The notes beneath the pieces are model-generated. The model worked only from the letters and a program-made list of their open reading frames with translations. It was not told the origin of the DNA and did not search any database. A stretch of 64,000 bases of DNA from Alphaproteobacteria bacterium (GTDB lineage Bacteria > Pseudomonadota > Alphaproteobacteria > UBA828), in NCBI GenBank assembly GCA_965220745.1, contig CBDCQT010000012.1:96001-160000 (forward strand), given 5' to 3'. Position 1 is the stretch's first letter. The number at the start of each line of letters is the position of its first letter. The translations under genes were made by a program, and so were the position numbers. Below, in pieces: positions 27,877-28,871 of this stretch.

Positions 27877-28827
27877 ATGAAACTCATAGCCCGTACCCTC
27901 TCCGCCGTGGCCTTCGTAGCCGCTTCGCTTCTTGCCAGCCACGGAACAGCCGGAAGCGTGGATGATGTTGTAAGGCCAGCAGAAGAGATTGCGCTGCATG
28001 ACGCAGCGGGCCGTGTCGAGGCAGGCGGGCGTGCGGGGTTTGTTCCGACGGCGCTGCTGGCCGAAGCGGAAGTGGGGCCGAAGGCGGGGGAAACATTCCG
28101 GGATTGCCCGTCCTGTCCGGAAATGGTGGTGGTGCCGGCGGGTTCGTTCGTCATGGGCTCGCCGAGGTCGGAAGTAGACCGTGACGGAGATGAAGTCCTG
28201 CAGCATGAGGTGACGATCTCGCAACCCTTTGCGGTGGGCAAACACGAGGTGACGTTTGCGGAATGGGATACCTGCGTATCCGCTGGCGGGTGCGACGGGT
28301 ATCGCCCCGATGACAAGGGCTGGGGCCGTGGAAGTCGGCCGGTCATCCATGTGACCTGGAACGAAGCGCGGTCGTATGTCGCGTGGCTGTCGCGGAAGAC
28401 GGGGAAGGAGTACCGGCTGTTGACGGAGGCGGAGTGGGAATATGCGGCGCGCGCGAAGACGCGGACGCGCTATAGCTGGGGGGATTCGGTGGGCCGGAAC
28501 CGGGCGAACTGCCGCGGCTGCGGCAGCCGCTGGGACGGCCGTGAAACGGCTCCGGCGGGTTCGTTTGCGGCGAACGGTTTCGGCTTGCATGACATGTCGG
28601 GCAATGTATCGGAATGGGTCGAGGACTGCTGGCACAATGACTATGCGGGCGCGCCGTCGGACGGCAGCGCTTGGGTGGCGGGCGGTGATTGCGGGCAGCG
28701 CGTATTGCGCGGCGGTTCGTGGAGCAACATACCGTGGTTCCTCCGTTCCGCCATCCGCCTCGGGTACAGCGTCGGGAACCGGGTCGTCACCTTCGGCTTC
28801 CGCGTTGCCCGGACGCTTACGCCTTGA
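27877..28827 (+). CDS. Secreted formylglycine-generating-enzyme (FGE-sulfatase / C-type lectin fold) protein; probable DGR target
   Basis: Signal peptide, [41 protein letters not shown], RGGSW...GFRVARTL. Confidence 0.88.
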   Translation: [316 protein letters not shown]

Positions 28828-28852
28828 GTCCTCACTTGTTTACCTCGGGGGT

Positions 28853-28871
28853 CCGGGGGCGGAGCCCCCGG
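28853..28871 (+). other. GC cruciform/hairpin of DGR target type
   Basis: Perfect 8-bp stem CCGGGGGC-GGA-GCCCCCGG about 25 bp after the stop codon, no U-tract. Confidence 0.65.

Follow-up and report, generated by a model that had tools for sequence, protein, structure and literature searches.

The FGE-sulfatase/CLec1 proteins (FGE, formylglycine-generating enzyme; CLec, C-type lectin) form the largest category of targets in the survey of diversity-generating retroelements (DGRs) by Wu et al. 2018, accounting for 71 of 372 DGRs; 45 of the 372 had 73 non-adjacent targets, and 10 had 29 targets lying more than 100 kb off (PMC5758913). The gene described here belongs to this class and lies in a 64,000-nucleotide stretch of DNA, the window, which represents positions 96,001 to 160,000 of contig CBDCQT010000012.1 (GCA_965220745.1) of an Alphaproteobacteria bacterium of the UBA828 lineage. 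It is an open reading frame (ORF) on the plus strand (27877–28827) specifying a protein of 316 amino acids with a signal-peptide-like N-terminus, a low-confidence linker and an FGE-sulfatase/C-type-lectin-fold domain, and it ends in a segment (28699–28817) equivalent to the variable region (VR) of a DGR target. An earlier note, made from the sequence alone, read the gene as a secreted, hypervariable binder, diversified in trans and dispersed by insertion sequence (IS) activity. The evidence points to this interpretation being half right: the gene is truly a target of the DGR type, its homing module is intact and no DGR lies near it, but it is probably not being actively diversified in trans. 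It is probably a stranded target, currently non-diversifying (frozen or dormant), which encodes one fixed binding specificity.

Remote targets, activity in trans and lectin-fold paralogues beside transposases have all been published, and the window gene is a recognisable case of this known class. Vallota-Eastman et al. 2020 recorded 219 cyanobacterial CLec orthologues, of which 45 were in-cassette and 76 remote targets, reported transposases near variable-protein genes and CLec paralogues, and advanced the idea that diversified genes turn conserved once uncoupled, the DGR being recruited elsewhere (PMC7517822). Dore et al. 2024 described trans activity in Thiohalocapsa as well as a remote target which matches a template repeat (TR) and shows no variation (PMC10907252). 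In the same way as these remote targets and non-diversified paralogues, the window gene is of target type, lies far from any reverse transcriptase (RT; none within the window) and has a transposase-rich setting. Published remote targets were assigned through a TR match in the same genome; the window gene is thus "unattached", and not callable as a remote target. The literature collection searched yielded no paper on "orphan" DGR variable regions.

When compared with the CLec1/FGE-sulfatase variable proteins (category "b", TvpA 2Y3C), the window protein is alike in its FGE-sulfatase domain, in a VR at the extreme C-terminus and in an AAC-to-NNC imprint. It differs from the class in having no cognate TR, Avd or RT in 64 kb, and a VR which is static in close relatives. 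With TvpA itself it shares only 24% identity in the structural alignment. A closer comparison was made with a complete cassette, L004, found among the related loci in a metagenome-assembled genome (MAG) of Candidatus Versatilivoraceae (OZ240232.1). The order in this cassette is target, bAvd and an RVT_1 RT, followed by a 119-nt TR which differs from the VR at 17 positions, 16 of them template adenines. The two target proteins are 47% identical; in DNA the VR, stop region, spacer and GC hairpin can be aligned, and the L004 template codons bearing adenines coincide with the NNC codons of the window. The VR and stop-codon region align without a gap, the 3′ arm of the hairpin being shifted by one base. 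The two loci differ immediately downstream of the target, where L004 has bAvd and RVT_1 and the window has an IS66 remnant, and in the T-run that follows the L004 hairpin and not that of the window. The L004 TR is not cognate to the window VR, since the scaffold codons differ at non-adenine positions. At the protein level the scaffold RGGSW..P..LRSA.R......R....GFRVAR is common to the window protein and to the TR-confirmed targets of L004 and of a second related locus, L008.

The extent of the VR equivalent was defined by a gapless, codon-by-codon alignment with the VR/TR homology of L004. To avoid circularity, variable positions were set independently of the window codons, as those aligned to L004 template codons having A at position 1 or 2. 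The resulting variable core (28723–28794, plus strand) has 16 codons opposite adenine-bearing template codons, of which 13 are NNC. The GC-rich 3′ end of the VR (28795–28817, plus strand; codons for GFRVAR-T) is invariant, belongs to the final portion over which the VR and TR of L004 remain alike, and probably occupies the position of the initiation-of-mutagenic-homing segment. The 13 NNC codons listed in the earlier note are all present (residues 283, 284, 288, 293, 295, 297, 298, 299, 301 and 303–306), and its observation holds at those positions and above chance; only its peptide had slipped, at Ile285, the codon of which is ATA. The third position is C in 23 of the 40 codons of 28708–28827 versus 81 of 277 elsewhere in the gene. 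C-ending codons occupy 13 of the 16 template-adenine positions versus 91 of 300 in the remaining gene (Fisher one-sided p=6.6e-5), and when synonymous usage was compared for the same amino acids the values were 13/15 and 51/142 (p=1.8e-4). Genome composition does not explain the NNC pattern, because the remainder of the gene favours G-ending codons.

The same imprint was sought in the protein family. At least 7993 homologues were recovered at E ≤ 1e-10 and the spacing analysis was carried out on the best 120, of which 86 (92 segments) have the exact spacing GGSW-x3-P-x2-LRSA-x-R-x6-x-R-x4-GFR. At the 10 columns where the templates of L004 and L008 have AAC (AAC-type columns), the residue is in 906 of 920 cases one of the 15 amino acids that adenine changes make from AAC, and K, E, Q, M and W together occur 14 times in 920 against a background of 17% in the same proteins. 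The two AGG-type columns hold R, W or G in 75 and 76 of the 92 segments. As judged from these aligned proteins, the residue spectrum is what adenine mutagenesis would predict (AAC to NNC and AGG to NGG). Together with the fold and with a 3′ module homologous to that of a complete DGR, the C-terminal imprint bears out the earlier claim of a DGR-type target.

Related loci with 33–54% identity to the target numbered 79 among the matches listed, many of their flanks ending at contig ends. At least four of these carry a TR-like repeat in which the mismatches fall chiefly at adenines (16/17 in L004, 17/17 in L036, 13/14 in L062 and 16/19 in L008). bAvd and RT lie directly downstream of the target in L004, L036 and L008; in the fourth locus, L062, the TR-like repeat is present, none of the six non-target ORFs examined matched any family and an RT was not identified. 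Thirty of the 79 loci bear 40 VR-like segments with the family spacing, a count that includes three TRs. Most of these 30 have no TR in the available flanks, and many have high NNC counts, for example 12/16 in L006. As a rough indication, given the many flanks cut by contig ends, unattached or frozen VR-type genes may be common in the FGE target family. Two of the related loci have features of their own. Locus L030, from a Pirellulales MAG, has tandem paralogues (1205–1366 and 3506–3667), each with 15 of 16 codons NNC and, at the same offset, a GC hairpin of 9 bp whose loop is GAA; there is no TR in 11.3 kb. In L008 (1953–10261) a single DGR (bAvd, RT and a TR at 5625–5755) is accompanied by three FGE-sulfatase targets, fused to an nSTAND1 NTPase, to TIR and to an unassigned N-terminal region, which resemble the conflict-system targets of multicellular bacteria.

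Beyond the stop codon, the spacer motif TTTACCTCGGGGGT (28839–28852, plus strand) is identical to that after the L004 VR, which recurs about 475 nt 3′ of the L004 TR, and occurs once in the window; elsewhere in the family it is seen in the read-through peptide tails of the homologues P0100, P0034, P0097 and P0008. Directly 3′ of it is a perfect 8-bp all-GC inverted repeat with a GGA loop, CCGGGGGC-GGA-GCCCCCGG (28853–28871), which could form a hairpin or cruciform and is as the earlier note described it. It lies 25 nt past the stop codon and 35 nt past the end of the VR equivalent; the window and L004 hairpins have an equal offset, 49 nt after the GFR codons. Guo et al. 2011 showed that homing in phage BPP-1 is efficient only when a GC-rich hairpin/cruciform lies downstream of the VR, and gave for phage-related DGRs stems of 7–10 bp, 4-nt GRNA loops and distances of 4–34 bp from the VR (PMC3240598). 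Compared with these the window stem fits, and the loop (3 nt) and distance (35 nt) depart slightly. All-GC perfect 8-bp hairpins number two distinct ones in 64 kb, against a mean of 0.63 and a maximum of 6 in 30 Markov-1 simulations, and when folded as DNA the window hairpin gave z=-2.04, with 7 of 200 shuffles folding equally well. The homology of the whole 3′ module to L004, as judged from the DNA alignment, matters more in our view than these statistics.

The second all-GC hairpin of the window (GCGCGCCG-CCTTG-CGGCGCGC, 18297–18317) lies inside a partial integrase ORF region. The hairpin at the target was also considered as an intrinsic terminator and rejected, since the terminator scan did not call it and it lacks an adequate T-run. 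In L004 a T-run comes after the hairpin, and the latter could also serve as a terminator. A 24-nt motif entering that hairpin after the L004 VR (10868–10891) recurs exactly at 12986–13009, about 475 nt downstream of the TR, where it likewise precedes a GC-rich inverted repeat; it may mark the end of both the target and the DGR transcripts.

No part of a DGR was found in the window. A blastn search (word size 7) with 28650–28880 gave a best non-self match of 20 nt (E=0.04) in the 64 kb and no TR, and the repeat finder likewise revealed none. Hidden Markov models (HMMs) built for RT and Avd from L004, L036 and L008 were run against 909 six-frame segments, with best E-values of 1.8 and 1.3, respectively, and neither RVT_1 nor bAvd was present among the 50 window ORFs scanned by Pfam. 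The single phmmer match, of segment 28424–29686 to the L004 RT ORF (E=1.9e-4), is not an RT and is attributed to the TR-overlapping tail of that ORF meeting the out-of-frame VR of the window. The absence of RT, Avd and template repeat claimed earlier is therefore borne out over 27.9 kb upstream and 35.1 kb downstream of the gene.

Three relatives about 98% identical to the target protein permitted the VR to be compared with the rest of the gene. P0001 has five changes outside the VR (A10T, V100E, D101G, R196Q and G269D) and none inside. P0002 has four outside (R33K, P34A, V100E and D101G), an altered C-terminal tail, and G296R inside. P0008 is frameshifted twice, and changes outside its VR were not scored past about residue 247, where the frame shifts; its VR, deduced by comparing the out-of-frame tail with the window ORF 28689–28982, would carry two C-to-T changes, both at wobble positions (Ser298 and Asn301) and both silent when read in the proper frame. 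Adenine mutagenesis cannot produce either of them. A further relative, P0039, is a fragment. In the available sequences the VR thus appears to change no faster than the rest of the gene, which argues against current hypervariability. The description of the gene as a hypervariable binder diversified in trans does not agree with VRs that are unchanged, altered at one residue, or altered at two inferred synonymous positions.

The FGE-sulfatase domain (PF03781, E=4.6e-55) has its envelope at residues 80–312 (28114–28812, plus strand), and the VR equivalent, residues 275–314, falls at its C-terminal end within the FGE-sulfatase/C-type-lectin fold. The AlphaFold2 model of the 316-residue protein has a mean pLDDT of 81, an N-terminal hydrophobic helix (residues 2–22) and a low-confidence linker (44–63). 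Helix 2–22 looks like a signal peptide, and export of the protein may be supposed from this predicted helix, the sole basis on which it could be called "secreted". When the predicted structure was searched with Foldseek, the top match was PvdO (5HHA; TM-target 0.85, 42% identity), with further matches to formylglycine-generating enzymes and to Treponema denticola TvpA (2Y3C; TM-target 0.69); a sequence search against solved structures gave PvdO 5HHA (E=8.5e-59) and the Treponema variable protein TvpA 2Y3C (E=1.3e-13). Catalytic formylglycine-generating enzymes have a pair of catalytic cysteines in the C-terminal segment, C336 and C341 in the human enzyme. In the target protein there is no cysteine after Cys272, as read from the translation and not from a residue-level alignment to an FGE chain.

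PvdO of Pseudomonas aeruginosa, a periplasmic FGE-fold protein of pyoverdine maturation, is of the same length class as the window protein and has the same C-terminal scaffold, and in its C-terminal segment it carries E, W, P and D where the window protein has NNC-coded residues. That PvdO is the closest solved structure and pyoverdine_PvdO (NF051459) the best NCBIfam model would favour an origin with no connection to DGRs, in which the gene is an ordinary PvdO-like, FGE-family periplasmic protein, its codons due to composition and surface-loop selection and its hairpin a terminator. Consistent with this are the 75 of 79 listed related loci which have no TR in the flanks examined, and the terminator-like T-run after the homologous hairpin of L004. 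Identity with PvdO was rejected, the score being 229.2 bits against the equivalog cutoff of 500 bits, and pyoverdine, nonribosomal peptide synthetase or siderophore domains were absent from the 50 window ORFs scanned by Pfam. Nothing relevant linking a DGR with PvdO was found in the literature collection searched.

The gene is bounded on both sides by insertion sequences, as had been claimed, on the evidence of end alignments and profile matches. Upstream is a full IS3-family copy (26614–27876, plus strand; orfA 26650–26949, orfB 27024–27842) with TG..CA ends, HTH_Tnp_1 and rve domains and repeat families D1–D7; its membership of IS3 is indicated by NCBIfam transpos_IS3 (E=1.1e-60, 205.8 bits against a 160-bit cutoff) and by multiple copies. 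Alignment of five right and three left ends places its right end (..GGTCA) at 27876, so that the next base opens the ATG of the target. Its flanks (left ..GCCG, right ATGA..) give no target-site duplication, unlike those of the copy at 12595–13857, which has CGCC on both sides, and the junction is therefore a rearrangement from which the native upstream region of the target is gone. On its other side this IS3 copy cuts the 3′ end of a 683-amino-acid N6-adenine methylase/MmeI-like ORF (24565–26616). No sigma-70-like promoter was found in 27500–29300, and a G-rich stretch in the IS3 end, 8–13 nt before the ATG, could act in the manner of a Shine-Dalgarno sequence.

Downstream, the stop codon of an IS66-like TnpA remnant (28880–29062, minus strand) is only 6 nt from the hairpin. 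The remnant is a 61-amino-acid open piece with in-frame stops upstream (PF01527, E=3.1e-8), which matches NF047595 IS66_ISRel24_TnpA (E=6.8e-16) with 58.9 bits, under the 74-bit cutoff. It is followed by the remnant of an IS3 3′ end (29256–29452, plus strand; repeat family D4), 94% identical to the copy ending at 27876 and with an rve_3 fragment in ORF 29169–29417, and next by an integrase (29631–30827). Dispersal by IS activity is plausible, yet what the junctions record is that the module has been rearranged and truncated at its two ends, not that the gene has transposed. In a plasmid collection the IS3 had one match (74.5%, in Methylobacterium), while the best match to the target gene (66–74% identity) took in part of the domain only, and none covered the VR.

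The history which these observations suggest is as follows. An ancestral gene would have encoded an exported protein of the TvpA/PvdO-like FGE-sulfatase type, the class that DGRs diversify. The RT of an ancestral DGR would have copied a template repeat rich in adenine, misincorporating bases at random at those adenines, and the cDNA would have homed into the 3′ end of the gene, leaving NNC codons (from template AAC) at ligand-facing positions. The cis-acting homing module, comprising the invariant GC-rich 3′ end of the VR, the conserved spacer and the GC hairpin, would have been retained. The module may then have been cut from its Avd-RT-TR unit within an IS-rich island, with an IS3 end now on the ATG and an IS66 remnant 6 nt past the hairpin. 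By analogy with L004, L036 and L008, which hold Avd-RT-TR at that point, the site of the IS66 remnant is where the cassette may have been cut off. Past homing, a function in binding, and removal of the cassette, as opposed to its lying elsewhere in the genome, are, we infer, the likeliest course of events.

Several points weigh against regarding the gene as stranded and frozen. A perfect GC hairpin (at least 7 bp, within 130 nt) follows only 4 of 36 VR-like segments of the listed loci, the three TR segments having been left out and one segment dropped because it lay too near the end of a contig. The confirmed targets of L008 and L036 are without such a hairpin, so that the family does not require one universally. 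An intact cis module with a perfect hairpin could mean continuing selection for homing. The search for DGR parts spans the window, and documented remote targets sit more than 100 kb off (PMC5758913). The argument from a static VR involves three relatives, possibly from one population, with the VR of one of them (P0008) inferred, and VR variants could exist within the 90% clusters that P0001 (24 members) and P0002 (133 members) represent.

These points lead to the alternative which survives best, although we think it unlikely: that a complete DGR elsewhere in the genome still rewrites the VR in trans through the conserved 3′ end and hairpin, the gene being one of several dispersed targets. In its favour, nothing is missing from the VR, invariant 3′ end, spacer or perfect hairpin, each of which has its homologue in a working cassette; there are published precedents for targets that are remote or diversified in trans (PMC5758913, PMC10907252, PMC7517822); and the sole VR difference of P0002, G296R, falls at an AGG-type column of the family. 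Against this, the VR is essentially identical in the three 98% relatives, as against 4–5 differing sites in the remainder of the protein, and the two inferred changes in P0008 are wobble-position transitions rather than adenine-derived. The IS3 end on the ATG has moreover removed the native upstream region, with no sigma-70-like promoter to replace it, and TR, RT and Avd are wanting throughout the 64 kb. A related and more doubtful proposal is that the IS-bounded unit of ORF and 3′ homing module constitutes a portable, DGR-ready target; such units, of which the family has many with no TR close by, would circulate on mobile islands as fixed binders, to be re-engaged by any incoming or distant DGR whose template matches the conserved scaffold, and in this case a distant DGR would occasionally rewrite the gene.

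It is improbable that the gene is a pseudogene in decay or a fragment of cargo, left unexpressed between IS copies and now without any function. Both of its ends are rearrangement junctions, a promoter-like site is lacking in the region searched, the surroundings are littered with truncated integrases, recombinases, relaxases and IS copies, and among the relatives P0008 has suffered its two frameshifts and P0039 is reduced to a fragment. The ORF is nevertheless unbroken over 316 codons, encodes the full domain and keeps the 28 positions that are invariant in the family alignment; P0001 and P0002 are likewise unbroken and share its N-terminus, and a putative Shine-Dalgarno-like stretch precedes the ATG. 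Least probable of all is the reading as a PvdO-like protein foreign to DGRs, which is largely refuted by the codon test, the family spectrum and the L004 alignment: synonymous codon usage within the gene departs sharply exactly at the template-adenine positions, K, E, Q, M and W are excluded at those columns across the family, the VR and downstream module are homologous in DNA to those of the L004 target, which has a genuine TR (template adenines account for 16 of its 17 mismatches), the window hairpin has no adequate T-run and was not called terminator-like, and both the PvdO score and the scanned ORFs speak against a pyoverdine function.

The rest of the window has several further features. 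A large serine recombinase (6784–8583, minus strand) has a degenerate second copy at 30999–31915 (73–83% DNA identity, families D9–D11), and each lies beside a tyrosine integrase, which suggests that the recombinase/integrase pairs are the duplicated ends of related integrative elements. Four integrase-type ORFs are present in all; ARAGORN found no tRNA genes in the window, and hence none beside an integrase. A TrwC relaxase-helicase of 1842 amino acids (45767–51295, minus strand), the ORF of which contains five head-to-tail copies of the 18-nt unit ATGGGGCCGCCATGTATC (47573–47662; repeat family D17), lies beside a second, truncated TrwC, in a region that also takes in 51658–53700 and 53697–54758 (minus strand); between the two copies are one full IS3 and, abutting it, a partial one. 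A type IV toxin-antitoxin pair, consisting of a DUF6088/AbiEi-like antitoxin and an AbiEii nucleotidyltransferase toxin, is encoded together with an HTH protein in 22418–24568, close upstream of the methylase. The segment 33501–35721 looks like a zinc-limitation cluster: its ZnuA has an extended insert rich in His and Asp, the coding DNA of which registers as repeat families D12 and D15, and is followed by a CobW-family GTPase and a WD40 protein. Three further genes specify a methyltransferase with a sterol-methyltransferase C-terminal domain (37857–38885, minus strand), a GPP34-cytochrome P450 fusion (39308–41344, plus strand) and a LolA-like protein (41350–42213, minus strand); this trio is unusual for a bacterium and is possibly a cluster for sterol-like lipid modification.

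As it stands, the description of a stranded DGR target is an annotation-level result. It indicates that such a target is recognisable from the gene alone, through the codon imprint and the conserved 3′ module. This is useful since unattached targets escape surveys that start from RT-adjacent VR/TR pairs, as Roux et al. 2021 acknowledge for their own RT-anchored metagenome surveys (PMC8144416). Should the gene instead prove to be a remote target that is still active and sits on an IS-bounded module, it would offer a convenient natural system in which to study trans-homing. If units of this kind do circulate as portable targets, then the capacity for diversification and the repertoire of targets would move separately.

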